A stretch of 64,000 bases of DNA from a virus: positions 32,001-96,000 of IMG/VR virus record IMGVR_UViG_3300047494_000107. One strand, written 5' to 3'. The notes beneath the pieces were generated by a model that worked only from the letters and a program-made list of their open reading frames with translations, ran no database searches and was not told the origin of the DNA. Shown here in pieces: positions 4,234 to 62,660 of this stretch. The translations under genes and the position numbers were made by a program. Position 1 is the stretch's first letter. Each line of letters begins with the position of its first letter.

Positions 4234-4688
4234 AATATCTGACACGCCTACTTGTCGCGCTGGCCGTCGCGTCGCTGCCGTTCTGTGCTTTCGCGCAGAT
4301 GCCGCGGATTCCTGGCTCTTATATCGGCTGGGCGACTGGCGTGAACATGGCGAGCACTGCTGATCAGCTCGTTTTCATCAATATCGGGGTACTGAACGTT
4401 CTGCCGACCCGCATGGTGTTGAAGAATTGCAGCGCGACGAACAGCGCCGCGGTAGGTGGCCTGTACACGGCGTCCAGCAAGGGCGGCACGGCGATAGTGT
4501 CGGCCTCTCAAACCTATTCGACGACAGTGGGTACAGGTGTTTCCCAGAGCGTCTCCATCAGCGGATCGACGATTTACACCGTGGGTCCGGGTGGCACAGG
4601 CAACTGGTTTTACTTTTCGTTGAGTACGGCAGGGTCCGGCACCTGCGACATCGTTTTGTTCGGCGATGACTACACGGCGCCGCTGTAA
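4230..4688 (+). CDS. Exported beta-rich hypothetical protein
   Basis: Signal peptide ..CAFA|Q; GTGA overlap with upstream gene; two Cys in mature part. Confidence 0.75.
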   Translation: MKYLTRLLVALAVASLPFCAFAQMPRIPGSYIGWATGVNMASTADQLVFINIGVLNVLPTRMVLKNCSATNSAAVGGLYTASSKGGTAIVSASQTYSTTVGTGVSQSVSISGSTIYTVGPGGTGNWFYFSLSTAGSGTCDIVLFGDDYTAPL

Positions 4689-4715
4689 ATCGCCGCACCA
4701 AAGGTTAGGTATAGT

Positions 4716-6692
4716 ATGCGTACGTTTCTGACTGGTTTGGCAGTTTCGTTCGGGGCGCTCCTTGCCGCTGCGACGGCTTTCGCGCAGACGCCGCCTGACT
4801 CGTCGTTGCCCGTCGGGTCGCTTCTGCAGCCTCAGCCGTACACCAATTCTGACACCCGTCTTCAGGCTACTCAGGGGTACGTGCTTGCGCATGCTGGCAC
4901 TGTCCAGGTGCCGACCGCCAGTGTATTGGCCGGCTCGGGAAACGCGCTGGTTGCGGCGACCGGCACTGGTATCGCAAACGTCCTCGGTTTCACACCGCTT
5001 AGCCCCGCAAACAACCTGTCTGAGCTGACGTCGACGGCCTCGACTGCTCGGTCGAACCTCGGCGTTCCACCTGTTCCGAGCGCTGCGGCGGCAGTGCTGG
5101 GTTGGAGCACGTCGACCGGGTGGACGTCGTCGTCTATCTCGGGGTCCGGCTCGACTCTTATGAGTTCGGCTCTGACGGCTTTTACGGCGGGCGATGTTCT
5201 CACACCGTCAAGCACAGGCGACCTTGTTGACGTCGGGCTGCTGAACCTCAACAGCGCCGGAACGCTAGCGCTCATCAAGGGCGCGCTTCATGTCCAGTCG
5301 TCTGGCGCGACATGCCCTGTCAACATTGGGTCTTCGAGCGGTGGCGTTCCCTTCATCAACACGGCTGGGGGCGCCTGCGATCTAGCCGTCACAGCTGGTA
5401 CGTCGGGCGGCACCAACAACCTCAAATTTTATCCGGACGGCCTTCAGGTTCTTGAACTGAGCGTGTCGTCCGGCACGCCGACAGGTGGCGTGCAAATCAC
5501 CGGAGGTGTCGGTCAGGCGAAAATTGGCGTCATCGACTCTGGGGCCAACTCCAATCTGGTTTTGGCGGCCAAAGGTACTGGCACTGTCCAGGCTCCGACG
5601 AACTCGTCCGCAGCAGACAGTACAAATCAGGTGGCCACTGACGGCTTCGTTCAGTCGGTGGCTGACGCGTTGGCGCCGAGCAGCACTACAGTCAACCCCA
5701 CGACACCCCCGTCTCTCGTCGGCCTGACAAGCACGGCCGGCAGCACCACGCCGATCACACTGGGCACGGGACTGACGCTAACGGGCGGTGTTTTGAGTTC
5801 CACTGGCAGCGGGTCGGGGTCTGGATCAGTCGCTAGTGGCGCGCTAGGCACTATTGCCTACTACGCTGCAGCCGGTACGTCGGTCGTTGGCGGTACGCCG
5901 TCTACGATCGGTATTGCTTCACTGTCGGCCACACAGACCTTCACCGGAAATAACACGTTCACTGGCACGGTGACGCTTCCTGGTGGCTACTTGCCTTCGA
6001 ACTTCAACGGCTGGACGACCGGCAGCCCTGTTGCGGTAACCAATTTAACGACGAATGACGGTTCGACTGATATCGCCACTGATGCGTTCGTCCAGGCAAA
6101 TGAGGCGCTTATTTCGCCGCAGGTGGCCGATAACACGCACTATCTGCTTGCACCTACGAGCACACTCGGTGCCACGCAGGTAATCACACTCGGCAGTAAC
6201 CTGTCCATTGCGAGCGGCGTTCTGAGCGCTACAGGCGGTGGCGGCTCTGGTTCGGGAACTGTCGGAAACGGAAGCCAGTATCAGGTCGCGTATTACAACG
6301 GCACAGGGACGACACAATCGGTCATTGGCGGCTCTCTTTCCACCATAGGTGCGGCGCCGATCGCCAGCCCTTACTTCACAGGTGTAATGGCGTTCAACAA
6401 CGCTGGTTCTGCGCCGATCATCAAGACAGCGAGCGAGACTTTAGCTGCCACGTATCAGTCTGTGCGCGAGTACAAACCGACCGCTAGCGGGTTGACAGTT
6501 ACGCTGTTTACGCCGTCAGGGGGAGCCCCCTACCCGAACTTCATTCTGCATAATTCCGCAAATTTCAGCCCTTCAACGGGCGGTTTCAATGTCACAGTTT
6601 TGGCACCGGATGGTTCTACCGTCATTGCCACCGAAGCGCCTGGTGGTACATGCGGCGCCAAATACGACGGCACGACATGGGAGTGCTGGTAA
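4716..6692 (+). CDS. Exported tail-fibre-like protein, paralogue of 1417..4233
   Basis: Signal peptide; N-terminal ~300 aa similar to the 1417 protein; fibre motifs QVATDGFVQ, DIATDAFVQ, APIASPYFTG; C-terminal YDGTTW. Confidence 0.75.
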   Translation: MRTFLTGLAVSFGALLAAATAFAQTPPDSSLPVGSLLQPQPYTNSDTRLQATQGYVLAHAGTVQVPTASVLAGSGNALVAATGTGIANVLGFTPLSPANNLSELTSTASTARSNLGVPPVPSAAAAVLGWSTSTGWTSSSISGSGSTLMSSALTAFTAGDVLTPSSTGDLVDVGLLNLNSAGTLALIKGALHVQSSGATCPVNIGSSSGGVPFINTAGGACDLAVTAGTSGGTNNLKFYPDGLQVLELSVSSGTPTGGVQITGGVGQAKIGVIDSGANSNLVLAAKGTGTVQAPTNSSAADSTNQVATDGFVQSVADALAPSSTTVNPTTPPSLVGLTSTAGSTTPITLGTGLTLTGGVLSSTGSGSGSGSVASGALGTIAYYAAAGTSVVGGTPSTIGIASLSATQTFTGNNTFTGTVTLPGGYLPSNFNGWTTGSPVAVTNLTTNDGSTDIATDAFVQANEALISPQVADNTHYLLAPTSTLGATQVITLGSNLSIASGVLSATGGGGSGSGTVGNGSQYQVAYYNGTGTTQSVIGGSLSTIGAAPIASPYFTGVMAFNNAGSAPIIKTASETLAATYQSVREYKPTASGLTVTLFTPSGGAPYPNFILHNSANFSPSTGGFNVTVLAPDGSTVIATEAPGGTCGAKYDGTTWECW

Positions 6693-8261: not shown

Positions 8262-10009
8262 ACAAGCGCTGCAGTTTGATGGCGCTCGTGGCCGCGTTCG
8301 CGGTCCCTGCGGTTGCCGATGCGACCACTTGGTATGTTGATCCGCTTCATGGCAGTAACAGCCACGCAGGAACGTCGCCGTCTACGGCGTTTCAAACGGC
8401 GAGCCACGCGTATAGCCATACAGGCGGCGGGGTTTCACCGGGCGACACCGTTGTTCTGATGGCCGTCACCAGCAGCGGAGCGGTTGTCCCGCTGGCTAAT
8501 ATCGGCATCTACGGGCCACGAGAGCAGAATGGCACGGCGGCACATTTCGGAACGTCAAGTAATCACGTTCACTGGGTTGGTGGCGACGCGAACGGAAACC
8601 CGCTTACCCCGAATACAGACATATCCACTTCTCTGTGCAGCAATTCTAGCGGCGGCAGCAGCTTGCTGCCTATTTTCAGCATGCCATCCGGTGCGGGCAC
8701 CAATGTCGTTGTTCAGATCAAAGGGGGTAATACGGGGTCTACTCCAGGGTCTGGAATAAACGGTATTTTCATGGATTTTACCTGCATAAGTTTTCAGGGT
8801 ACGACAACACCAGGTTCACGGTACTTGCCATCGCAGCGTGGCAGTAAGGGCCCGATATCCGGCGTGTATATCAACACAAGTTCCGATATATGGTTTCAGA
8901 ACGTCGAAGTTGCCTACACAGGCGGGGACGGCTTGGGTACGGAAGCCACTGAAAATATATTTGTGGACCACTCGTGGTTTCACGATAATGCCTATGATAT
9001 CCCCTTCTACGATGGCGTTGAAGCGTACGGCTCCGCGCTCTCGTATTTGCGAGGATATGATTGGTACAACTACACAAGCGGGGCGTCGGTATACAGCACG
9101 CAAGTTGCGTTTGGCATAACCAACAGCCGTTTTTGGAATAACTATAATGACACGAGCACTTGTACGTCAGGAGAGCCCTGCAGCCCGACAGACGGTGAGG
9201 CCATTGAGCTTGACCGCAACGACGGGTCTTGTGAAGGCGATTTGGGGCCTTGCACGTCTGACGACCCCGGTACAGGCGCGGACAACCATCTGCCGCCGTT
9301 CACGGCGAAAATTCTCGTCGCCAACAACCAGATATGGCAGTCGGGTGGTCCAGGCATCAACTCGTACTTGACCGCCGGCCTCGTCGACATACTCGGCAAT
9401 TCGCTCTATTTGAACAACTTCAAGTCGACGAACTCCGGGTCAAACCAAGGCGAGATCAGTCTTAGCGGCGCCGCTGCGCCCCCTACGACGACAGGCGGCG
9501 TCGCATCGCCGCTAGCGTCTCAAAACTATGGCGCTCGGGTTATCGGCAATATCGGGTATTTCAACAGCAGTTTTGTGCGCTCAAATAATTCTAGCGCCCA
9601 TGCACGGTGTATTCAGGTTGAGAATAACGGTCAAACGTCGTTAAATGGAACCTACACTCCAGTCGGTTCGCCAAGTATATTGAAGAACAACCTATGTTAC
9701 GACGTGGCGGGTAGCACGTCTTACACCACGTACTTTACAAGCAACAAGACGACTCCCGCGCTGAGCACCGTAAACGGTAATGGCACGACGAGTGCGATAC
9801 TTCTCGGCAATCCGCTGTATACCTCGCCGTCGACGTCAAGCAGCGCGAACTTTCAATTGTCGCCTACCTCACCGGCTTTCGGGTTCATCGCCGCTAGTAC
9901 AAGCGAATATCTATCTCCCGACACGCTTGGTGTTGCGCGTGTGCAATCAGACCTGACGGCAGGCGCTTTTCAGGGTTCTTCGTCCACTACGTCGCTTTGC
10001 CATCGGTAA
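8258..10009 (+). CDS. Exported right-handed beta-helix (pectate-lyase-like/depolymerase) protein
   Basis: Signal peptide ..ADA|T; WYVDPxxGSNxxxGTSPxxAFQT N-cap; Asn-rich coil repeats; NFQLSPTSPA C-cap. Confidence 0.7.
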   Translation: MNKRCSLMALVAAFAVPAVADATTWYVDPLHGSNSHAGTSPSTAFQTASHAYSHTGGGVSPGDTVVLMAVTSSGAVVPLANIGIYGPREQNGTAAHFGTSSNHVHWVGGDANGNPLTPNTDISTSLCSNSSGGSSLLPIFSMPSGAGTNVVVQIKGGNTGSTPGSGINGIFMDFTCISFQGTTTPGSRYLPSQRGSKGPISGVYINTSSDIWFQNVEVAYTGGDGLGTEATENIFVDHSWFHDNAYDIPFYDGVEAYGSALSYLRGYDWYNYTSGASVYSTQVAFGITNSRFWNNYNDTSTCTSGEPCSPTDGEAIELDRNDGSCEGDLGPCTSDDPGTGADNHLPPFTAKILVANNQIWQSGGPGINSYLTAGLVDILGNSLYLNNFKSTNSGSNQGEISLSGAAAPPTTTGGVASPLASQNYGARVIGNIGYFNSSFVRSNNSSAHARCIQVENNGQTSLNGTYTPVGSPSILKNNLCYDVAGSTSYTTYFTSNKTTPALSTVNGNGTTSAILLGNPLYTSPSTSSSANFQLSPTSPAFGFIAASTSEYLSPDTLGVARVQSDLTAGAFQGSSSTTSLCHR

Positions 10010-32877: not shown

Positions 32878-33189
32878 TCATAGGCAGTTCTCAACCTCCA
32901 TGGCTTCAACTACGCGCTGAGCTATCAGGCGCGGAGAAATGTGCTCCTCGTAGAAGGCGGTCCCGGCTGGACACTTACGGCGTTCGTCATCCCGGTATTG
33001 GCGGACGATCTCTTCTCGGACCACCCGAGCTACGCGCTTCACGACAGCGCCCGGCGATAAGCAGCTTGTTGAGGCTGTCGGCGGCGTCGCAAACCGCTTT
33101 GGCGCAGGCGGCCTATCCGTCACCTGGAAGGTGTCATTTCTGCCGCCTTTCCTGCGATTGCCCTCAGCTAAAGGTTTGACCGTGCTCAT
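32878..33189 (-). CDS. Small hypothetical protein (MSTVKPL start)
   Basis: ATGA overlap with upstream gene. Confidence 0.45.
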   Translation of the reverse strand: MSTVKPLAEGNRRKGGRNDTFQVTDRPPAPKRFATPPTASTSCLSPGAVVKRVARVVREEIVRQYRDDERRKCPAGTAFYEEHISPRLIAQRVVEAMEVENCL

Positions 33190-33548
33190 ATCGCAACTCC
33201 GTCGTGATACCAAGCGCTATAACTGAGCGGCGCACCGCTTACCGGAAAGCCAATCAGCTTAGCGACAGACGCATAGCCTTTGCACACGCGCGATTCGTCG
33301 TAGTGGCAACCCCAGGGTCGCCCTGCGGCTCTTGCCATATCCAGTATTTGGATATTGGTGGGTAGACATCCGTAATTTTGGGCTTGCTCTGCCCACTCAT
33401 TGACGCTGAACGGGCATGTCAAACATCCGTCGCATCCGGCAGATAGCGCTTTTGAGACGGTTGCCGAATCAAGGGGCGTTAATTCAGACCGACCGTCGAC
33501 TACCGCCAGTTCACGCAGCGCATCAGATAAAGGTTTGACCGTGCTCAT
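33186..33548 (-). CDS. Cys-rich hypothetical protein (MSTVKPL start)
   Basis: CxxCPF..YGCLP..WGCH..CKG; AAGGA RBS. Confidence 0.7.
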   Translation of the reverse strand: MSTVKPLSDALRELAVVDGRSELTPLDSATVSKALSAGCDGCLTCPFSVNEWAEQAQNYGCLPTNIQILDMARAAGRPWGCHYDESRVCKGYASVAKLIGFPVSGAPLSYSAWYHDGVAI

Positions 33549-34364: not shown

Positions 34365-34656
34365 CCCCCGCCCTCCTTCGCTCAATCCACACCCGCAGTT
34401 CCCGCGCCGCATGCAGCAACTCCGAACTCCAGCGCCTAGGCACGCCGCTCCATTCCGTGAACGGGCCGGCAGGTCGCCACCACACGCCGGGCAGGCGCTC
34501 CCACAGGTCGAAGCCTCGCACGGTCAAAGGCGCATCCATGCCGGCGCACCATACCTGGATCATCTTGGGGCCGTAGGGTAGTTGGCTCATGCAGGAGCGC
34601 CAGTCGTCGCCGACGGGAAATGGGGTGCTTTCGAAGGTGAGGGAGGCGTTAGGCAT
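34357..34656 (-). CDS. Small hypothetical protein
   Basis: ATGCCTAA overlap. Confidence 0.55.
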   Translation of the reverse strand: MPNASLTFESTPFPVGDDWRSCMSQLPYGPKMIQVWCAGMDAPLTVRGFDLWERLPGVWWRPAGPFTEWSGVPRRWSSELLHAARELRVWIERRRAGDE

Positions 34657-35056
34657 GCTTAACCGACCCCGCGCCCATTAATTCAGTGATCTCATTGAAG
34701 CACAGAACGGCGGCAAACCCCTCGTCCGTTCCAAGCCTGTCGGCGATTTCCTCACACGCGGCCAACGAAGCGGCCAGAACGCCCCGCAGCCTCTGTATCT
34801 CCCCCGCGCATTCCCCCAACGTCGCCGAGCGCAGCCGACCCGCGCCGTCCGGTCGCCACCAGAGGTTGCCGTAGAATTCGTCGGTGGGGGTTGGATCAGA
34901 TTGGGTTTGGTCCGTCGTGCCGGCGACCACAGCAAAACCGCATCGCTCAAGGGCCGCCAGAACCTCGGTCGCCACACGCCGCGCATCGCTGTTGCCGTCG
35001 CCGCACACGCATTCGATTTCCCGTGCGATGATTGAGATCGGCGTCGATTCAGGCAT
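34649..35056 (-). CDS. Hypothetical protein (MPEST start)
   Basis: ATGCCTGA overlap. Confidence 0.6.
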   Translation of the reverse strand: MPESTPISIIAREIECVCGDGNSDARRVATEVLAALERCGFAVVAGTTDQTQSDPTPTDEFYGNLWWRPDGAGRLRSATLGECAGEIQRLRGVLAASLAACEEIADRLGTDEGFAAVLCFNEITELMGAGSVKHA

Positions 35057-35309
35057 GCGGATTCACCTTCTGCATGGCCGCAACCACGGCAAGCGTCACC
35101 GCTTTGACGCCGCGCGTAACCGGCCAGAGACTGGGATTGCCCGCAAGTTCGTCGCCAGGGTCGGCCTCGTTCGCCGCCTGATCAAAAATTTGCACAAGGT
35201 CCTGCAACGCCAAGCCGGGGGCAATCGCTTTACACGACAACACCATTCCGGCGTGCTCCGTGGTGAGGGTTCCGAAGTCCGGGGCTGTGGATTCAGGCAG
35301 TTCGGTCAT
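35049..35309 (-). CDS. Hypothetical protein (MTELPEST start)
   Basis: Overlap-coupled in array. Confidence 0.6.
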   Translation of the reverse strand: MTELPESTAPDFGTLTTEHAGMVLSCKAIAPGLALQDLVQIFDQAANEADPGDELAGNPSLWPVTRGVKAVTLAVVAAMQKVNPHA

Positions 35310-35608
35310 GTCAGCTTACCTAGCAGGACGCGAGCCAATATCTGGTGCGGTTTGTCTGCCCACCAATCAGCGTAGATGCTTTCCGTTCCGTCGAGCGGAC
35401 CGAATGCGAGCTTTTCAACTTCGCGTCTATCCAGCGCGTCTGCCGACTTCATAGCGATTGCCCGCTCAAGGGTGGCGAGATCATCCTTTGATCGGCGTGG
35501 GTTTATTTCGCAGCCGCTTTGGTCCAGCGCGCGGCGCAATGTGGCCGTCTTGCGTTCAGCTATCGCGGCGGCCTCGGTCACGGCGGAGTAGCCGGTCGAT
35601 TCAGGCAT
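35306..35608 (-). CDS. Hypothetical protein (MPEST start)
   Basis: GGAGG RBS, ATGCCTGA overlap. Confidence 0.6.
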   Translation of the reverse strand: MPESTGYSAVTEAAAIAERKTATLRRALDQSGCEINPRRSKDDLATLERAIAMKSADALDRREVEKLAFGPLDGTESIYADWWADKPHQILARVLLGKLT

Positions 35609-35849
35609 GGACGCGCGCCTCCCGTATGTTGTCGAGAACCAACCGGCGCGCATACTCCGCATTGAGGCAATAGCAGTCCGTCACCCACCCTCGCCGGGTC
35701 CACTTTTGGACCTCGGCGGGGCCGACGCGCCAAGCCCCGGATGGCGTGCCGCATTCATCGTCCAACGTCACGCCGCAGAACGGGCATTCGTCGGTGTCGG
35801 GGTCGAGGCCGATGCAGGGTGGTTCTGTTGATTCAGGTTCCCCACTCAC
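35601..35849 (-). CDS. Cys-rich hypothetical protein (MSGEPEST start)
   Basis: GTGA overlap; CPFC, CYC. Confidence 0.55.
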   Translation of the reverse strand: MSGEPESTEPPCIGLDPDTDECPFCGVTLDDECGTPSGAWRVGPAEVQKWTRRGWVTDCYCLNAEYARRLVLDNIREARVHA

Positions 35850-36088
35850 CGCCGCACCCCCAACGCTTCCTTCATCCACCCGACCCCATGCAGGAACCAA
35901 GCTTGGCCAGGCGTGCAATTCGGCATGATCGCCCGCGCGGCCGCGATGACCTCCACGGGCACGACGATTTGGGCGGTTTCCTCGAACTGATACCACCCGT
36001 TCGGCCCGAAGCCACCGCCGCCTCGTTTGAGGGTGATGGTGCGTTCAGGCTCGGTCAGGTCGCAGGGGGCGATCAGTTCGTCCGTCAC
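35846..36088 (-). CDS. Small hypothetical protein
   Basis: GTGA overlap. Confidence 0.55.
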   Translation of the reverse strand: MTDELIAPCDLTEPERTITLKRGGGGFGPNGWYQFEETAQIVVPVEVIAAARAIMPNCTPGQAWFLHGVGWMKEALGVRR

Positions 36089-36261
36089 CGCCGCACCTTC
36101 TTCGCTTCCGCCCGCAGCCCCGACTGGATTAACCGCCGCAGCGTCTCCATCTCTGAGCCGATCTGCTCGGACAGCCGGAACTCAGCGACGCTCGCCCACA
36201 GACTCTCTGGCAGGGTCACGCTCTTTCGGATCATAGGCTCGGGCGGCTTCGGCTTGCTCAT
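36085..36261 (-). CDS. Ribbon-helix-helix (CopG/Arc-like) regulator
   Basis: RKSVTLPESLW..V..FR....I.SE.E.LRRLI..GL. Confidence 0.75.
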   Translation of the reverse strand: MSKPKPPEPMIRKSVTLPESLWASVAEFRLSEQIGSEMETLRRLIQSGLRAEAKKVRR

Positions 36262-36372
36262 GCCTCTTGGTAGCAGGATGCAGCGCACCATGCAAGCGCG
36301 ACAGTGGTGAGATTGGTGTTGCGCGGCGGCGGGGGATGTGCTGTAAGTTGCGAACAGAATATGGAGGACGGG

Positions 36373-36525
36373 ATGAGCGACTATCGGATCACCTACGATA
36401 CGCTGCTAGGTGGCTACTCAATTGAGCGGCTAGCGACTGGCAAGCGAGGATATCGCGGCTGGCTCAGGATCAGCAACCACCGCACCTATGACGATGCCAA
36501 GGCCGCTTTCACCGCATTCACCTAA
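36373..36525 (+). CDS. Small hypothetical protein
   Basis: GGAGG RBS. Confidence 0.55.
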   Translation: MSDYRITYDTLLGGYSIERLATGKRGYRGWLRISNHRTYDDAKAAFTAFT

Positions 36526-36543
36526 CCCTTGATCGAGGTAGCC

Positions 36544-36810
36544 ATGAGCCAGGAGGATTACGACGTAGGCTACGAAGAAGGTCGCGCCTCCCGCCAATGG
36601 GAAATCGACCTAACCGCCGAGGACACGATGCCGTCCGGACACACCGACGACCGCGCTATGACGCCATATCGGGCCGCGCTGCTTGCGCGCCTTCCGGTGG
36701 CGCGGATCGCGCTGGAGACACAAGAGCGGCGGCAGCTAAACGAAATGGTGCGCTTCGGCTGGGTCGAAGATGACGGCACCGTTTACCGCCGCGTTGAACA
36801 ATCAACCTGA
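36544..36810 (+). CDS. Small hypothetical protein, possibly a fusion (second RBS+ATG at 36628)
   Basis: GAGG RBS; internal junction motif at 36603. Confidence 0.5.
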   Translation: MSQEDYDVGYEEGRASRQWEIDLTAEDTMPSGHTDDRAMTPYRAALLARLPVARIALETQERRQLNEMVRFGWVEDDGTVYRRVEQST

Positions 36811-36828
36811 TCGCCGGAGGACCGAACG

Positions 36829-37017
36829 ATGCCTTACGCCACACACAGCCTCGAACGCACAAGTCCCAAAGGCCGGGGGCAAAAATTCCTCGGTCGCTGC
36901 ATTCGATGCGGCATGACAGACTTGCCAGCCAGCGCCGCGTTTGATCCGTGCGAGAATCATGCGCGGGTGAGCGACGATGAGGCGTTGTTGCTAGCCATCC
37001 GTGGCCCTTCAACCTAA
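36829..37017 (+). CDS. Small Cys-containing protein
   Basis: GGAGG RBS; CIRC..CEN. Confidence 0.65.
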   Translation: MPYATHSLERTSPKGRGQKFLGRCIRCGMTDLPASAAFDPCENHARVSDDEALLLAIRGPST

Positions 37018-37033
37018 TCCAGGAGCCTGCCCC

Positions 37034-37294
37034 GTGGTGGACTGGCGTGCGCGATTGCAGGAATTTCGGGGTAAATTCAACCTCTGGCACCGCGCTGTTT
37101 GCGAATGGCGCCGAGGTCAAATCCGCGTCTGGCCGCTCAACCCCAGCGACGACTTTTCGGGCGAATTGCCGAAAGCCTACAAGGGCACGCCGGTCGTCTG
37201 GAACAATCTGGGCGTTTCGAAACCACCCAAGCCACCAGCCAATTGGTCGCCGCCGCCCGGCTGGGTGCCTTTCGACAAACGCAAATCAACCTAA
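37034..37294 (+). CDS. Small hypothetical protein
   Basis: AGGAG RBS, GTG start. Confidence 0.55.
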   Translation: MVDWRARLQEFRGKFNLWHRAVCEWRRGQIRVWPLNPSDDFSGELPKAYKGTPVVWNNLGVSKPPKPPANWSPPPGWVPFDKRKST

Positions 37295-37299
37295 CCCCC

Positions 37300-37497
37300 A
37301 TGGCCCGATGCGCCCGCTGCGACGCCCCCGAAAGCCAATGGCGCATCCACCCATGCCCAGCGTGCGGCTATCCAGGCCCCGACACACGCCCGCCAGAGCG
37401 CGTCACGCAGGACGAAGCTGACCGGCATGCGCGGATTTGGGGCGACGAACATGTCTATGCGCCGGGGGCGGATGGGTGTGTGGTTTGTGGGTGGTGA
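37300..37497 (+). CDS. Small zinc-ribbon-like protein
   Basis: CARC, CPAC, CVVC. Confidence 0.6.
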   Translation: MARCARCDAPESQWRIHPCPACGYPGPDTRPPERVTQDEADRHARIWGDEHVYAPGADGCVVCGW

Positions 37498-37508
37498 GGG
37501 TGGAGACG

Positions 37509-37541
37509 CAAAAGGACCGCCCGGTTTCCCGAGCGGTCCTT
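37509..37541. terminator. Intrinsic terminator between convergent operons
   Basis: AAGGACCGC..GCGGTCCTT stem; short U-tract on minus strand. Confidence 0.7.
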
Positions 37542-37564: not shown

Positions 37565-37822
37565 TCACCAATGGGTCAGCGGTGCCCGCACGGTGACTGC
37601 CCAAGGCGTGGTGGCTGGGGCGGTTTGCAGAACAATCCCGACGCTCACTTTCGTTACCCAGACACCCTTATACTGAATGACAACACCAGGAGAGACCTTC
37701 GAAAATTGTGCTCCTGTGTTTTGCAGCACAACACCAGGAGAGACCTTCGAAATCTCCGCCTGCTGTGCCATTGCGATGCTCGGAAGAAACAACATCAGCC
37801 CAGCGACAATCCAACGGATCAC
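37565..37822 (-). CDS. Small exported repeat protein
   Basis: Signal peptide ..AMA|Q; three xxKVSxGxVxQ repeats; 25-bp direct repeat at 37680/37728. Confidence 0.7.
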   Translation of the reverse strand: MIRWIVAGLMLFLPSIAMAQQAEISKVSPGVVLQNTGAQFSKVSPGVVIQYKGVWVTKVSVGIVLQTAPATTPWAVTVRAPLTHW

Positions 37823-38925
37823 GGGATCGTCTCCACCCCAAAGTCAACGCCGGCAGCGGTCAAATCAGACGGCAACCATGCAACGCCAGTGTTGGGATTT
37901 GTCGCCTGAATATAGCTGCTGAAGTTCGAGAAGCTATTCGTCGGAGCATAGCTGCTGCTGAGATAGTCCGTGCCGCCGACCCGCGTATCGAACTCGAAGT
38001 GCTGAGGACCAGACGAACCAACCAATGCCTGAGCGCTCATCGCTACGCCAAGCACGCTATAACTGCCGCTGGGTAGCGTGTTGTAGATGGCGCAGTTGTG
38101 CAGAACGTTGTTCGATGCGCTGTAGGCGTAGTTAGCTTGGTTCAGCGTCGAAGCATTCCAAATCGACGAGCAGACGTTCGTGCCACTCAAGCCGGTGCTA
38201 TTGCCATTTGCGTTTGTGTAGGCCGTGAAGACGCCCATGGCGCGCGTGTCGGTGGTGGCGACGATGACTTCGGACCAGAGACCTAAGTTAGTTTGGGGCA
38301 CTGCGAACTCGACCTGGTTAAGCGTCGTAGCTCCATCGCCATTCGTGACGTTACCAGTATAGTCACAGACTTGTGTGCTGTTACTATAAAGAGTAACTTC
38401 CCCGCTTGATCCGTAGTTCACATACATGTCGAATTGATCAAGCGACGCAGGGATCGCGGATGAACATGTGACAAGGTCGGTAAATGTGCCCCCTGATGTG
38501 CGGGATGATATCTTTACCTGGCCATTCGTTCCGGTGCCTCGCACAATTAATGTCGGGTTTCCGCTGCTATCGTTAATTCGCAACATCTGATAGTTGGACG
38601 CCGTCGTGGTTATGCAAGTATTTGAGTTATCGGTGCAATACTGCCCGTGAATCCAAATAGTAGAATTTCCTGCGAAAGTAGACGTTTGAAACCTGTTCAC
38701 AGGCGGATCAGAGGCGGAAGTATCGGAAACGTCATACGAGCCACGGGACCAGGCTGAGCGGTAAAGCCCAGATGGCGCAGTAAATCCACACGTGCCACCA
38801 CTCAAGCACGTAAAGTCCGAGTCCTCTTTACCCACGAACAATAGCGTCGCTTGCGCCGAGTGCGCTGCACCCAGCATCAGCCCAATCAGCACCAATAGCG
38901 GGAAAAGCCGACGAATGAAGTTCAT
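37819..38925 (-). CDS. Exported beta-sandwich/lectin-like protein
   Basis: Signal peptide ..AQA|T; paired Cys; C-terminal NPNTG.AW...L...FG. Confidence 0.75.
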   Translation of the reverse strand: MNFIRRLFPLLVLIGLMLGAAHSAQATLLFVGKEDSDFTCLSGGTCGFTAPSGLYRSAWSRGSYDVSDTSASDPPVNRFQTSTFAGNSTIWIHGQYCTDNSNTCITTTASNYQMLRINDSSGNPTLIVRGTGTNGQVKISSRTSGGTFTDLVTCSSAIPASLDQFDMYVNYGSSGEVTLYSNSTQVCDYTGNVTNGDGATTLNQVEFAVPQTNLGLWSEVIVATTDTRAMGVFTAYTNANGNSTGLSGTNVCSSIWNASTLNQANYAYSASNNVLHNCAIYNTLPSGSYSVLGVAMSAQALVGSSGPQHFEFDTRVGGTDYLSSSYAPTNSFSNFSSYIQATNPNTGVAWLPSDLTAAGVDFGVETIP

Positions 38926-40265: not shown

Positions 40266-40449
40266 CCTTTCAACTCGTACTCCGCCTATTGAGCTTTTTG
40301 ACCGCCTAGAGGTGCAAAAAGTTGAAAGGATTGGCGTATATACGCGGCTGTCGTCGCATTACAAAACCGCTGCACTACCGCTGTGCTAACCCGGCGGACT
40401 GTTGTTTTCGATATATTTTATGGCGGCTCTAACCGCTAATTTCAACTCG
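40266..40449. repeat. Candidate integrase arm-type sites flanking attP core
   Basis: TTTCAACT at ~40268 and ~40440, inverted copy AGTTGAAA at ~40320. Confidence 0.5.
40359..40395 (-). tRNA. 5' half of tRNA-Thr(UGU), attP core (not a full tRNA)
   Basis: GCCGGGT-TA-GCAC-AGCGGTA-GTGC-A-GCGGT-TTTGTAA; tRNA structure stops at the end of the anticodon loop; 46 bp downstream of integrase stop. Confidence 0.85.
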
Positions 40450-41539
40450 CTTTCTGGGCCACTTTCGACTCATGCCGCTTGCCCGACCTCAGTTTACGCA
40501 TCGCACCCTCAGCAAACGTCCGGTCAGGTCTGACGTATACCGACAGCACATTTCGGCTTTTGTGGCCGGTTATCGCCCTGATTTGGTCCTCCGAACACCC
40601 TGCAGCCCCGAGCGCCGTGGCCAGAGTGCGCCGCAAATCACGAAACTGCAGATCGTCCGGCAGCCCTGCCAGCGCTCTTAGGCCGGCAAATCGGTGTTGA
40701 AAGTCACTTTCAGCGTAGGGTCGCCCCGTGGCCTCGGAGACGACGATAGGGCCATTTTCGACTCGCGGGGTTGTCTCCAGCAGCCGGCGGAGTTCAGGGA
40801 GCGCCGGCACCCAGACTGCGGCGCCCGTCTTCTCCTGGCGCAGCAAGACAGCCTTCCCGTCATACGCCGCCCAGGACAGCTTGCGGAGGTCGGCCGGGCG
40901 TTGGCCCAGGCACCAGCCCAGCATCACGGCCAAGGCCATGCTTGGGCGGCCAGCTTCAACGGCCTTGGCGCAGAAAACGTCGCGCTCATTGATCGTCCAG
41001 ACCCGTGAGCGACTATCCGGCACGGACACCATCATCTTGAGCGCCGGGTTCTTGTCAATCCAACCCTCGTCGACCCCAAAACTCAACAGGCGGCGCAGAG
41101 CGGCAATCGCGTTACGGGCGGCGGATTCACCGCGATCGGCTTTCAGACCCCGGTACCAGTTCTTAACCATTTTACGCTCAAGCAGGGCTACAGAAGATTC
41201 ACCCGCAGCGTCTAGCGCCGGCTTGATGTTGTAGAGGTAGTCGCGCTGAGTTCGCGGAGCCATGTCGACCATGAACTCCTCGTCGGCCTGGAACAGGTCG
41301 TGAAGAGCCAGTAGGCTATCCGACCGGTAAGATGGACCTGTCTTGGGTTCTTGCTTACGGCGCCACTGATCCAATTCCGCGTTCAGGCGCTCAGCTGCGA
41401 CGATGGCCTGTATGCGGTCGTCGGGGAGACGACGAGGGATGAACCCGGCGGCGAGGAGTTTTGGAGTCGGTTGCCAATACCAGAGCGTACGGCCTTTAAG
41501 GGGCCGCTTTACCAGATACCGGACGCCGATGTCCCGCAC
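40442..41539 (-). CDS. int: Tyrosine integrase
   Basis: GQRPADL (R), QEKTG (K), FRDLRRT (HxxR variant), TGH, VY. Confidence 0.93.
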   Translation of the reverse strand: MRDIGVRYLVKRPLKGRTLWYWQPTPKLLAAGFIPRRLPDDRIQAIVAAERLNAELDQWRRKQEPKTGPSYRSDSLLALHDLFQADEEFMVDMAPRTQRDYLYNIKPALDAAGESSVALLERKMVKNWYRGLKADRGESAARNAIAALRRLLSFGVDEGWIDKNPALKMMVSVPDSRSRVWTINERDVFCAKAVEAGRPSMALAVMLGWCLGQRPADLRKLSWAAYDGKAVLLRQEKTGAAVWVPALPELRRLLETTPRVENGPIVVSEATGRPYAESDFQHRFAGLRALAGLPDDLQFRDLRRTLATALGAAGCSEDQIRAITGHKSRNVLSVYVRPDRTFAEGAMRKLRSGKRHESKVAQKAS

Positions 41540-44571: not shown

Positions 44572-45597
44572 TCAGCGCGGCGGAGCATACCCGGGATACT
44601 GGCCGGGCGGCGGAGCAGGGGGCTGCTGCGGGAAGTTCTGGTACGGCGGAGCAGGCGGAGCAGGCGGAGCAGGCGGAGCAGGCGGAACGGCCGGTGTCAG
44701 GTGGCCCTGGTACGCAGGAGCCGGTGCCGGCTGCGGGTAGCCCTGGTACGCAGGAGCCGGTGCCGGCTGCGGGTAGCCCTGGGGCGCATACTGAGGCGCG
44801 GGCGGCTGCGCTCCCGGATAACCCGGCTGCGGCGCCACGTACTGCGGGGGTGGCTGATACGCCGGCTGTGGCGTCTGCGGAGGGGCATTCCACGGCTGCG
44901 GCTGTTCCGGCACCGGATACCCCTGGAAGGCCGGCGCAGCTGGTGCCGACGGCGGAGCAGCAAACGCTCCTGGAGGACCTGCAGGCGCGGCGCCCGCGAT
45001 CGGCGCGAACCGCTTCTGCACATCTTCCAGACTACGCTCATTCGTCGACAGACGCTCACCGTCCCTGGCGAACTGGATCGTGTCGAGGTAGATCGTGATG
45101 CCGCGGTTCGTCACGGCGCCGGTCTTGCGGTCCTTGTATTCGAACTCACTGATCTTGATCTCGGCGATGACATAGCAGCCGCTGTAGATCGTCGACGCTG
45201 GCGCCGGGAACGCATTCGCGCCGAGCACGAACGGCACTTTCGCCGATGAGGCATTGATATACCACTTGCCCTGGTACTCGGGACCCTTGGCTTTGCCGGT
45301 CTTGACCGATACCGACGATCCGTTCTTCAGCGGCGACTGAATGAGGTTCTGCTTGACCTTGTCCGACCCACTGCCGCTCGCATCCGAGAACGCCGCGTCC
45401 GCAACGCGCAGAATGGCCGCGTAGATGTTGGCGATATCCTCTTGGTCTTCGAGGATCAGGTTCGTCCCGTAGTCGTAGACCTTGTTTCCATCCTTGTCCG
45501 TGTAATCTTTCTCGCGCGGTGCCGAGATGTTACAGTACGACGTACGGGCGACCCTCTTCAGGACATAGTTTTCCTGGGCCTTCGGTTTATCAGCCAT
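44572..45597 (-). CDS. ssDNA-binding protein (DUF2815-like) with Pro/Gln/Tyr-rich tail
   Basis: R.SY..P; PL.NG; INASS; IYSGCY; NRGI..L..IQF.RDGERL. Confidence 0.85.
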   Translation of the reverse strand: MADKPKAQENYVLKRVARTSYCNISAPREKDYTDKDGNKVYDYGTNLILEDQEDIANIYAAILRVADAAFSDASGSGSDKVKQNLIQSPLKNGSSVSVKTGKAKGPEYQGKWYINASSAKVPFVLGANAFPAPASTIYSGCYVIAEIKISEFEYKDRKTGAVTNRGITIYLDTIQFARDGERLSTNERSLEDVQKRFAPIAGAAPAGPPGAFAAPPSAPAAPAFQGYPVPEQPQPWNAPPQTPQPAYQPPPQYVAPQPGYPGAQPPAPQYAPQGYPQPAPAPAYQGYPQPAPAPAYQGHLTPAVPPAPPAPPAPPAPPYQNFPQQPPAPPPGQYPGYAPPR

Positions 45598-60845: not shown

Positions 60846-61024
60846 CACATGTAGTCCCGGCCGAACCACGCCAAGGCCACCAGCCCGGCAATGGCGATCA
60901 CCGCCAAAGTAAGCGTCCTGACAGGATGCTGCTCCCAGTCATCGCCGGCCTGCCACAGCCTGACGAGCCAACTCTCGGGCTTCACGGCGTAGGTCTCTGA
61001 CGGCGTCGCGTTCTCGCTGTCCAT
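60845..61024 (-). CDS. 59-aa membrane protein (MDSENATPS start; below ORF-track cutoff)
   Basis: AAGGAGG RBS, TGATG overlaps at both ends, C-terminal TM segment. Confidence 0.6.
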   Translation of the reverse strand: MDSENATPSETYAVKPESWLVRLWQAGDDWEQHPVRTLTLAVIAIAGLVALAWFGRDYM

Positions 61025-61962
61025 CAGACGTCCTCCTTCGGGCGCCCGTTTTCATCCAACGTGTACCAAACATAAGGTTTGATACCGTCTCTCCCCACGA
61101 TTCCGGCCCACGCGTGGGTGATGTTCCAGTCGTCGTCTCGTCGCGCTAAAAACAAAGCGTTTCCTGTAACGCCCATGACGCGACCGTACTTGCCGGATGA
61201 CATTGCGGCGGACCGGTCGCCCGTGGAGGAGGCGGCGGACTGATCGCCCGTGGAGGAGGCGGCGGACTGGTAGCCCGTGGAGGAGGCGGCGGACTGGTAG
61301 CCCGTGGAGGAGGCGGCGGACTGGTCGCCCGTGGAGGAGGCGGCGGACTGGTCGCCCGTGGAGGAGGCGGCGGACTGGTAGCCCGTGGAGGAGGCGGCGG
61401 ACTGGTCGCCCGTGGAGGAGGCGGCGGACTGGTAGCCCGTGGAGGAGGCGGCGGACTGGTAGCCCGTGGAGGAGGCGGCGGACCGGTCGCCCGTGGAGGA
61501 GGCGGCGGACTGGTAGCCCGTGGAGGAGGCGGCGGACCGGTCGCCCGTGGAGGAGGCGGCGGACTGGTAGCCCTCGACGTGCTTGCTCCCCGTAGCCGTT
61601 GCTCGCGCGATCACCCATTCGATGGCGCGCTTGACAAGATCGGGAATCTTGATCTCAGCGTCGATGGTGATGCGCGCGCTGGCGATCTTCGCGTCATCGG
61701 CGCTCTCACGTGATGTTTCGCCGGACTGCCGAACATCCGCGTAACGAGAGGCGCCGGGCGCATAGTAGCTGAACACGCTGAGCGGATGATGGTCGACGCT
61801 GCACGCGTGAAAACCAGACTGGCAGGCGATGACAGGTCCGACATGCTCGTAGGTCTTGCCGACCTCGAACTGATAGCCACGACATTTCCAGTCGAGGTCA
61901 AAGCCTTTAATTGACGCGATCTCTTCATCTGTATCCGACGGTGTTGCGTTCTCGCTGTCCAT
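61024..61962 (-). CDS. Phage protein with KGF..CRGYQFEVG/C.SGFHAC domain and 9-aa repeats
   Basis: GGGAG RBS then ATG at 61962; C-terminal VG..GIKP..WY.L. Confidence 0.8.
   Translation of the reverse strand: MDSENATPSDTDEEIASIKGFDLDWKCRGYQFEVGKTYEHVGPVIACQSGFHACSVDHHPLSVFSYYAPGASRYADVRQSGETSRESADDAKIASARITIDAEIKIPDLVKRAIEWVIARATATGSKHVEGYQSAASSTGDRSAASSTGYQSAASSTGDRSAASSTGYQSAASSTGYQSAASSTGDQSAASSTGYQSAASSTGDQSAASSTGDQSAASSTGYQSAASSTGYQSAASSTGDQSAASSTGDRSAAMSSGKYGRVMGVTGNALFLARRDDDWNITHAWAGIVGRDGIKPYVWYTLDENGRPKEDV
61195..61572 (-). repeat. 27-bp coding tandem repeat, 14 units
   Basis: G(YQ/DQ/DR)SAASST x13 plus one degenerate unit. Confidence 0.95.
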
Positions 61963-61982
61963 GTCTGTCTCCCATGTGCTGT

Positions 61983-62660
61983 TCATTCCCAGAAGCTCGC
62001 CAGCGGCTTCACGCCGGCCTCGTCTATCAACCGCGTCACCAAGTCGATGAATGCCCCGCGTGCCGCCGAGGGTGTCATCAGCGTCTGCGTCGGCACATGC
62101 GAACACGGCGGAAGCGCCGGCCAATCTCGCAACGGCGTCGCCATGAAGTCTCGCTTCTCGACCGCCAAGGCCAGCAGATCGGCCTTCTTGACCTTCCGCT
62201 CCAATTCGCCGAACTCATCGGCCGGGCAGTAGAGCAAACGCTCCGTCAGCCCTGCCGCGGCCTCGACCGCCACCTGGACGCGCTGTTGAAGCGCCTTCAC
62301 AGGGTTGAACGCCACGTCAAAACGCTGACGGATAAGCTCACCCAGGGCATCCTGCATCGGCGACGTGATATCGCCCGTGACGTATTCGTGGGCGTCATGC
62401 AGCGCCGCCATCAGCATCTCGAATGCCGAGGCTTTCGGGGGCATGAGACTGGCCACCAGGACGCTGTGCTGCGCCACCGAATAGGGCGGTTCGACGACTC
62501 CCGTAGCGACGCACGTATGGTTGGCGAACCTGCCCTCACGAGACAGCGCCACACCAATGTCACGCAGCCGAATGACGTGCGGATCAGGGTCCAAGAGTTG
62601 GAACGGGGCGCCGCTACGCAGCTGCATCCAGGTGCGGGACAGGACTTCAGGACTGGTCAT
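61983..62660 (-). CDS. HD-domain 5'-deoxynucleotidase (YfbR-like)
   Basis: DI..ALS...RF.NH; YSVAQHS; LHDAHE...GDI..P; AD. Confidence 0.88.
   Translation of the reverse strand: MTSPEVLSRTWMQLRSGAPFQLLDPDPHVIRLRDIGVALSREGRFANHTCVATGVVEPPYSVAQHSVLVASLMPPKASAFEMLMAALHDAHEYVTGDITSPMQDALGELIRQRFDVAFNPVKALQQRVQVAVEAAAGLTERLLYCPADEFGELERKVKKADLLALAVEKRDFMATPLRDWPALPPCSHVPTQTLMTPSAARGAFIDLVTRLIDEAGVKPLASFWE

Follow-up and report, generated by a model that had tools for sequence, protein, structure and literature searches.

Tiny orphan genes are abundant in phage genomes, and their gain and loss without breaking the operons that hold them is only partly understood. In T4-type phages, the promoter(early)–stem-loop elements (PeSLs; ~100 bp, ~50 per genome) combine a sigma-70 promoter with a terminator stem-loop, and their mini-circles have been shown experimentally (PMC2839356, PMC4122927); recombination between neighbouring copies leads to single orphan genes being lost or inserted (PMC2839356). 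In mycobacteriophages Island3 and Brujita, at gp67/gp68, a small orphan gene ends like the gene upstream of it, and the ~50-bp (18-codon) 3′-end repeat has been read as recombination (PMC3029335). The start-associated sequences (SAS) of Cluster K mycobacteriophages are ~13-bp asymmetric repeats by the starts of unrelated nonstructural genes, sometimes including the upstream stop; they contain a Shine–Dalgarno sequence (SD; GGGATAGGAGCCC), lie 3–7 bp before the starts, number ~15–20 per genome, are conserved across subclusters, and are suspected of a role in translation (PMC3203893). Finally, the stoperators of Cluster A mycobacteriophages are asymmetric 13-bp sites, 24–34 genome-wide, that occupy short intergenic spaces in the orientation of transcription and are bound by a helix–turn–helix repressor, the operator of the early promoter having the same sequence (PMC3029335, PMC6550527, PMC9283540). 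Here we describe a short, stop-containing word, TCRACCTRA, at the gene junctions of an operon of five tiny genes (g1–g5; positions 36373–37497, plus strand) in a 64,000-nt window of phage DNA, bases 32,001–96,000 of IMG/VR record IMGVR_UViG_3300047494_000107, a complete genome of 110,533 bp with direct terminal repeats. Positions below are those of this window unless a genome or locus is named.

The motif, more fully (A/T)TCRACCTRA, is the conserved core of a homologous family of gene junctions: each of the four internal junctions of the operon has it and the end of g5 does not. The pattern is genuine, though modest, and comparable ones have already been described in other phages. The genes and junction copies, in order along the plus strand, are the following.

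36373–36525, plus strand: gene g1, 50 aa, ending TAFT-stop, with a GGAGGA SD and a G+C fraction at third codon positions of 0.69
36516..36527, plus strand: junction j1, ATTCACCTAACC, the weakest of the copies, which supplies TAA as the stop of g1
36544–36810, plus strand: gene g2, 88 aa, ending EQST-stop
36603..36632, plus strand: putative relic junction within g2, AATCGACCTAACC, followed by GAGGAC (SD) and ATGCC; its TAA (36611–36613) is out of frame
36800..36833, plus strand: junction j3, AATCAACCTGATC (TGA is the stop of g2), GGAGGAC (SD) and ATGCC (start of g3)
36829–37017, plus strand: gene g3, 62 aa, Cys-rich, ending GPST-stop
37007..37019, plus strand: junction j4, CTTCAACCTAATC; its TAA is the stop of g3 and AGGAG follows
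37034–37294, plus strand: gene g4, 86 aa, with a GTG start at 37034 or 37037, ending RKST-stop
37284..37296, plus strand: junction j5, AATCAACCTAACC; its TAA is the stop of g4, and the ATG of g5 comes 5 nt on, without an SD
37300–37497, plus strand: gene g5, 65 aa, CxxC zinc-ribbon-like (weak Zn_ribbon match), the last gene of the operon, with no motif at its end

All five strings are present where the first-pass annotation had placed them (36516, 36603, 36800, 37007 and 37284), and four of them supply in-frame stops, the proteins g1–g4 ending FT, ST, ST and ST before the stop. We also confirmed its account of the 36603 copy, which is out of frame inside an open reading frame (ORF) and is still followed, like the 36800 copy, by GAGGAC..ACGATGCC. 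In the frame of g2 this copy reads E-I-D-L-T; the frame using its TAA is open only from 36569, and the ATG after it (36628) is in frame with g2. The sequence 3′ of the 36800 copy is GGAGGACCGAACGATGCC, and the downstream block common to the two copies is CGCC(G)GAGGAC..ACGATGCC. g2 is probably a fusion of a short remnant, g2a (to 36627), and a second part, g2b (60 aa, from the in-frame ATG at 36628); the relic and j3, which both carry AATCRACCTRAYCGCC(G)GAGGAC..ACGATGCC, flank exactly this g2b (197 nt).

When the five junctions are aligned, the block T..ACCT.A.C is invariant. Only the junctions are alike, and for pairs of them the likeness extends into noncoding flanks, the upstream flanks of the relic and j5 being identical at 11/17 bases (65%). 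Single genes are bracketed by repeat pairs, g2b by relic and j3, g3 by j3 and j4, and g4 by j4 and j5. The core contains no SD; it ends 3–9 nt before the SD and 5–18 nt before the start. The genes between the junctions are orphans that show no similarity to each other outside the junctions, either in protein or in interior DNA. Codon-position G+C is consistent with coding in the frames of g1–g5, and an SD is present for g1–g4, whereas g5 starts 5 nt past the stop of g4 without one; none of the five has a Pfam, PHROG or NCBIfam match (only the weak Zn_ribbon match of g5), and g2 and g4 have zero homologues among 5.8 billion proteins. Those of g1 are three, all metagenomic, with 56–71% identity and on contigs of 1.4–3.1 kb. 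The earlier claim of a DNA-level element rather than protein conservation is thus supported, the genes being unrelated, one copy out of frame, and the similarity confined to junctions with their noncoding flanks.

Recurrence of the word alone is weak evidence, because clustered near-identical 9-mers are common in this GC-rich genome: in half of its 1-kb windows, some 9-mer occurs four times at ≤1 mismatch. TCRACCTRA, a word picked after the fact, occurs 10 times in the 64,000-nt window against 1.30 ± 1.00 in shuffles (0/100 shuffles reached 10), with four copies on one strand within 700 nt; the whole genome holds 12 matches, those outside the array lying mostly within genes, and the motif is local to one operon. 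Its significance comes from the position at gene ends, to which the out-of-frame relic and the shared flanks add. Comparing the last nine bases before the stop across all gene pairs, we found g2 and g4 to be one of only 11 pairs with ≥8/9 identity, and g2-g3-g4 to be the best consecutive gene-end triple of the genome (P = 0.008, 20,000 gene-order permutations).

Alike gene ends are not restricted to this operon. Across the genome, eight neighbour gene pairs (rank distance ≤2) have ends with ≥7/9 identity where 1.47 are expected (permutation P = 1.5e-4), and 5/11 of the pairs at ≥8/9 identity are neighbours within two genes. Similarly, in 10/58 local exact repeats of ≥12 nt each copy lies no more than 12 nt from a gene boundary, and five of these ten are away from the repeat zone beside the terminal repeats. 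Genes beyond the array were called with a crude ORF/codon-usage caller, which missed at least the 82-aa gene at 35601–35849, g5, and the two genes at 33169/33528. The junction repeats found elsewhere, together with the regulator gene and the divergent intergenic region beside the plus-strand array, are as follows.

33169–33189 and 33528–33548, minus strand: 21-nt perfect direct repeat, codons 1–7 (MSTVKPL) of each of two adjacent ORFs that are otherwise unrelated
35043..35057 and 35595..35609, minus strand: 15-nt perfect repeat CATGCCTGAATCGAC, bracketing two genes (552 nt); the upstream copy, 35595..35609, holds the stop of one gene and the MPEST start of the next
35846..35858 and 36085..36097, minus strand: 13-nt perfect repeat GGTGCGGCGGTGA, bracketing exactly the 80-aa gene; the copy at 36085..36097 is the end of the regulator gene below with an overlapping start
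36085..36261, minus strand: ribbon–helix–helix (RHH)-like regulator gene, matching a transcriptional repressor weakly in PHROG (phrog_4738, E = 1.2e-3) and nothing in Pfam; it is the first gene of the divergent minus-strand array of small genes
36262..36372: divergent intergenic region, by the gene layout the presumed promoter region of both arrays
73829 and 75364: 13-nt repeat, spanning several genes
76416–76430 and 76667–76681: 15-nt repeat, bracketing an 83-aa gene
-31621 and -31238: 16-nt repeat, bracketing one gene

The 21-nt pair is not in the count of 10/58 because the crude caller missed both of its genes. Apart from the pair at 73829/75364, each of these six repeats brackets one or two genes. 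The genes bracketed by the 13–21-nt repeats are unrelated in sequence, and the repeat words vary between sites. Given the same treatment, a control phage (G407; 89 kb, distantly related) had boundary repeats in 0/24 cases and no neighbour effect; its three TCRACCTRA matches are all inside genes, none at a gene end.

Some further details of these places may be recorded. The neighbouring gene ends at 76416–76430/76667–76681 and at 75173/75637 share, within each pair, an SD–spacer–stop/start overlap (GGAGTCGGTGTGATG; GAGGYGACGCCGTGA), with one gene bracketed per pair. The repeat zone beside the terminal repeat (77086–78470 and the genome start) consists of 16–130-nt direct repeats and holds two genes with an identical last 15 nt (CPSQ-stop). 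In the minus-strand array (34649–35849), four consecutive small genes begin M(x)PEST from the DNA word CCTGAATCRAC, and three upstream genes end HA-stop in the overlap CATGCCTRA; the 82-aa gene at 35601–35849 reads MSGEPEST...VHA-stop. This minus-array word and the plus-array core both contain AATCRAC, each oriented with its own transcription, and 6 of the genome's 25 copies of that 7-mer lie within 2.3 kb around the regulator gene; by our own estimate, the chance of such an overlap between the two arrays is roughly 0.01–0.02.

Unrelated genes with homologous junctions between them, and a word of its own at each place, point to a process that copies or uses junction sequences rather than to one factor reading one sequence. 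We favour the explanation that the junction repeats were left by, and are usable for, the gain and loss of single genes through short homology, and we give it roughly an even chance. The junctions would then be related by descent and the genes between them unrelated. Recombination at short junction homology, in unequal or Campbell-type exchanges involving co-infecting relatives or sister genomes, would add or remove genes singly, with a junction copy remaining on either side; because each junction holds the upstream stop together with the downstream ribosome-binding site and start, every exchange would give a working operon. The relic in g2 would be a former junction whose upstream mini-gene was later fused to g2b, and its mosaic character, with a left flank like that of j5 and a right flank like that of j3, would fit a crossover in the core. 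A model of this kind has been put forward for the ~50-bp repeat around gene 68 of Island3 (PMC3029335) and for orphan genes flanked by PeSLs (PMC2839356). The exchange could be carried out by the Gp2.5-like annealing protein and the exonuclease of the phage, the genes of which lie 7–9 kb from the plus-strand array. We infer all three parts of this picture: recombination as the origin, the repeats as present crossover points, and these two proteins as the agents. What the first-pass annotation called a cassette boundary site is, in this general sense, in agreement with the other junction repeats and the alike ends of neighbouring genes; the site-specific, attC-like version of the idea found no support.

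Several observations weigh against gain and loss by recombination. No array-bearing relative was found in our searches, so gain, loss and reordering are unseen. Neither a search of GenBank phages at the DNA level nor a comparison of g1, g3 and g5 with phages by tblastn (g3 having no GenBank-phage match) yielded a relative of the array; nor did scans for peptide patterns in IMG/VR, in GTDB genomes and in JGI metagenomes (queried with g2, the 368-aa neighbour described below, the DNA polymerase, the g1 family and its homologue P0123), or a set of 401 genomes from the order of G001 (Mesorhizobium; Rhizobiales-type). The plus-array copies, with a core of 9–13 nt, are short and imperfect and therefore poorly suited to homologous exchange today; bracketed genes do not stand out from their neighbours in G+C and show no foreign composition; and the g2-g3-g4 triple is, on its own P value of 0.008, only moderately significant. 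Moreover, a translational coupling element would give the same picture of a motif at all four internal junctions and none at the end of g5, and the junctions are unusually free of G and of folding, a hint that the mRNA may be under selection. As a separate matter, the sole IMG/VR match of the 22-nt junction pattern (positions 9223–9244 of locus L009) was rejected as a coding coincidence inside a 277-aa nuclease-like ORF (…GSIDLIAEDG…).

The placement of the motif and the G-free, unfolded state of the junctions are what one would expect of an element acting in the mRNA, a "stop-associated sequence". The motif would be an unstructured, C/A-rich and G-free landing or standby stretch that includes the stop and lies 3–9 nt before the next ribosome-binding site, serving coupled translation or the binding of a host or phage factor. 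We regard this as the main rival, possible but distinctly less likely. Presence at every internal junction and absence from the end of the last gene, a constant orientation and a fixed, short distance to the next SD all fit it. In 4/5 cases the junction RNA folds less stably than its shuffles, with the motif unpaired in the predicted folds and no common hairpin, and the G-free runs that precede g2, g3 and g4 (12–17 nt) rank with the longest of the genome. The relic still has an SD and an in-frame ATG after it, and there is a precedent in the SAS of Cluster K mycobacteriophages (PMC3203893). On the other hand, there are just ~5 copies, in one 800-nt stretch, and the other operons of the phage lack the motif, where SAS number ~15–20 per genome; the other arrays have their own, different junction repeats, which speaks for a process and not for one recognised sequence; the motif has no SD of its own; and in the distant relative G407 gene ends do not carry it. 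Recombination and an action in the mRNA are compatible, and a functional junction word would also be the best available homology.

Both could even be combined by design: the motif, the word CCTGAATCRAC and the other junction repeats might form a deliberate homology-addressed cassette system, in which the words double as termination/re-initiation signals on the mRNA and as crossover addresses for the Gp2.5-type annealing protein. If true, orphan genes would be slotted in frame into an operon without a site-specific recombinase; we find this improbable.

A further reading is chance, aided by the ordinary gene-end bias of a GC-rich genome. The ease with which 1-kb windows of this genome assemble four near-copies of some 9-mer, and the modest P of 0.008 in the triple's permutation test, are in keeping with it. 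The same word, however, holds four consecutive stops, and the fifth, out-of-frame copy has ~20 further bases in common with j3; there is also the genome-wide excess of neighbour gene-end similarity (P = 1.5e-4), and the control phage G407 is without any such pattern. Taken together, we consider chance a highly improbable explanation.

We assign only a very slight probability to the copies being operator-like sites, stoperator-like, at which the RHH-like regulator or another repressor would silence both divergent arrays. RHH operators are usually paired or tandem, while the copies here are single, ~200 nt apart, and neither. The occurrence of AATCRAC in the words of both arrays, oriented with each array and with 6/25 of its genome copies so close to the regulator gene, agrees with such a role, but a common 7-mer could be chance at the rate estimated above (roughly 0.01–0.02). 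The presumed promoter region between the arrays (36262..36372), at which a repressor would be expected to bind, holds no motif copy; a simple scan there gave no consensus sigma-70 site. Nor is the motif spread over the genome, unlike the 24–34 stoperators of L5 and Bxb1 (PMC3029335).

Tandem duplication of one gene-plus-junction unit, with the gene bodies diverged beyond recognition and the junctions kept, is no more credible to us than the operators. The junction copies are clearly homologous, and g3 and g5 resemble each other weakly in their Cys-rich sequence (z = 3.5; empirical p = 0.01, uncorrected for the 15 comparisons), but no other protein or DNA similarity exists between the units. 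Elsewhere in the genome, perfect 13–21-nt junction repeats bracket unrelated genes, a combination that slow divergence cannot explain.

Integron attC sites consist of an RYYYAAC inverse core and a GTTRRRY core 50–140 nt apart, in an imperfect inverted repeat of 57–141 nt. Three motif copies match RYYYAAC (as ACCTAAC), and a candidate enzyme lies near:

40442–41539: tyrosine recombinase with a match to phage integrase phrog_1, the sole tyrosine recombinase, 3 kb from the array

That the copies are attC substrates of this enzyme, ACCTAAC being the inverse core, is nevertheless effectively refuted, as no GTTRRRY partner or imperfect inverted repeat lies downstream of any copy, GTTRRRY is not enriched (100 vs 87 expected), bottom-strand DNA folds of five 130-nt segments do not surpass shuffles (z from +1.5 to -1.4), with the core unpaired or in a trivial local stem, stop-to-start gaps of merely 5–18 nt leave no room for a site of 57–141 nt, and the integrase, which scores 17–22 bits against cut-offs of 220–335 in the NCBIfam integron/Xer models, resembles a phage attP integrase and not IntI.

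Three smaller ideas gained no support. A hairpin masking the SD through the anti-SD-like ACCT is rejected, the folds showing no such pairing, and membership of a known RNA family had no Rfam support for the motif. A phage-polymerase promoter, suggested by a likeness to the beginning of the T3 promoter, is unsupported, as no single-subunit RNA polymerase was found: PF00940 was unmatched in six frames of the whole genome, though control genomes also gave no match, and no RNA polymerase is among the large annotated phage proteins.

The genome around the locus is that of a phage for which no sequenced kin was found, the best match of its polymerase among GenBank phages having 33% identity and the best terminase matches in IMG/VR 40–45%. 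It encodes a terminase, portal, major head protein and baseplate J, and also a family-A DNA polymerase and a tyrosine integrase besides the Gp2.5-like annealing protein and the exonuclease. The Gp2.5-like gene (44572–45597, minus strand) contains 9-nt (GGCGGAGCA) and 36-nt tandem repeats at 44577–44780, coding for the C-terminal tail. A DUF7666 gene (61024–62124, minus strand) has ~13 tandem 27-nt units (GCCCGTGGAGGAGGCGGCGGACTGGTN) at 61205–61570, translated into a nonapeptide repeat, and an RtcB-type RNA ligase (phrog_1075, E = 5e-71) is encoded at genome positions 4199–5509 (L020, minus strand). A tRNA scan found none. Immediately downstream, the plus-strand operon meets minus-strand genes at the following structure, probably a two-way terminator.

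37512..37541: hairpin with a 13-bp stem (inverted repeat I5) between the convergent operons, with a weak Rfam match to the terminator end of a small RNA; missed by a simple scan

Beyond it, on the minus strand, lie a gene for a secreted-looking 85-aa protein (37565–37822), in which a 25-nt direct repeat (37680/37728) encodes FSKVSPGVV(L/I)Q units, and a gene for a 368-aa signal-peptide protein (37819–38925; phrog_6368). The latter has >200 homologues at 50–66% identity, with many invariant Cys, Trp and Gly, in Mesorhizobium, Bradyrhizobium, Rhizobium and Rhizomicrobium as well as in metagenomes, and because of these the host is likely alphaproteobacterial. In the one locus of such a homologue that we examined, in Rhizobium sp. 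Root1203 (L013), the array is absent. A homologue of the 85-aa protein lies there 3′ of the 368-aa homologue (L013 9095–9406), followed by a 1,556-aa RHS/YD-repeat protein; motif matches in the same locus were rejected as related junctions, being antisense within a 478-aa ORF.

Overall, the locus offers a compact example, with several independent junction repeats around one or two genes and one operon in which a stop-containing word stands at every internal junction. If exchange were confirmed, recombination guided by gene boundaries, so far documented for the ~100-bp PeSLs and a single 50-bp example, would come to include repeats as short as 9–20 nt and a probably alphaproteobacterial phage lineage without sequenced kin. 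Should the word instead work through the mRNA, the SAS would gain a counterpart anchored on the stop.

Compared with the known systems, the array resembles attC cassettes in having a site at the 3′ end of each promoter-less unit, with 3/5 copies fitting RYYYAAC. Like stoperators, the copies are asymmetric and oriented with transcription, but they are local, and none lies in the promoter region. With SAS the motif shares the form of a short, one-orientation repeat at the junctions of unrelated genes; it differs in lacking an SD, in being anchored to the stop and in its confinement to one operon of one known genome. The likeness to PeSLs lies in repeated modules in orphan-rich regions, which reach from the upstream stop to the SD and start of the next gene; here, however, there is no promoter-like site in 36373–37497, the spacers are 5–18 nt, the array junctions have no stem-loop, and ~5 local copies serve one operon rather than autonomous units. 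In the Island3/Brujita case, a relative lacking the gene proves the indel, whereas no array-bearing relative was found here. The two have in common a DNA-level similarity confined to 3′ ends and the proposed gain or loss of exactly one gene; what the present locus has in place of one long repeat is a core of 9–13 nt (up to ~35 nt for the relic and j3) that recurs at four to five consecutive junctions.

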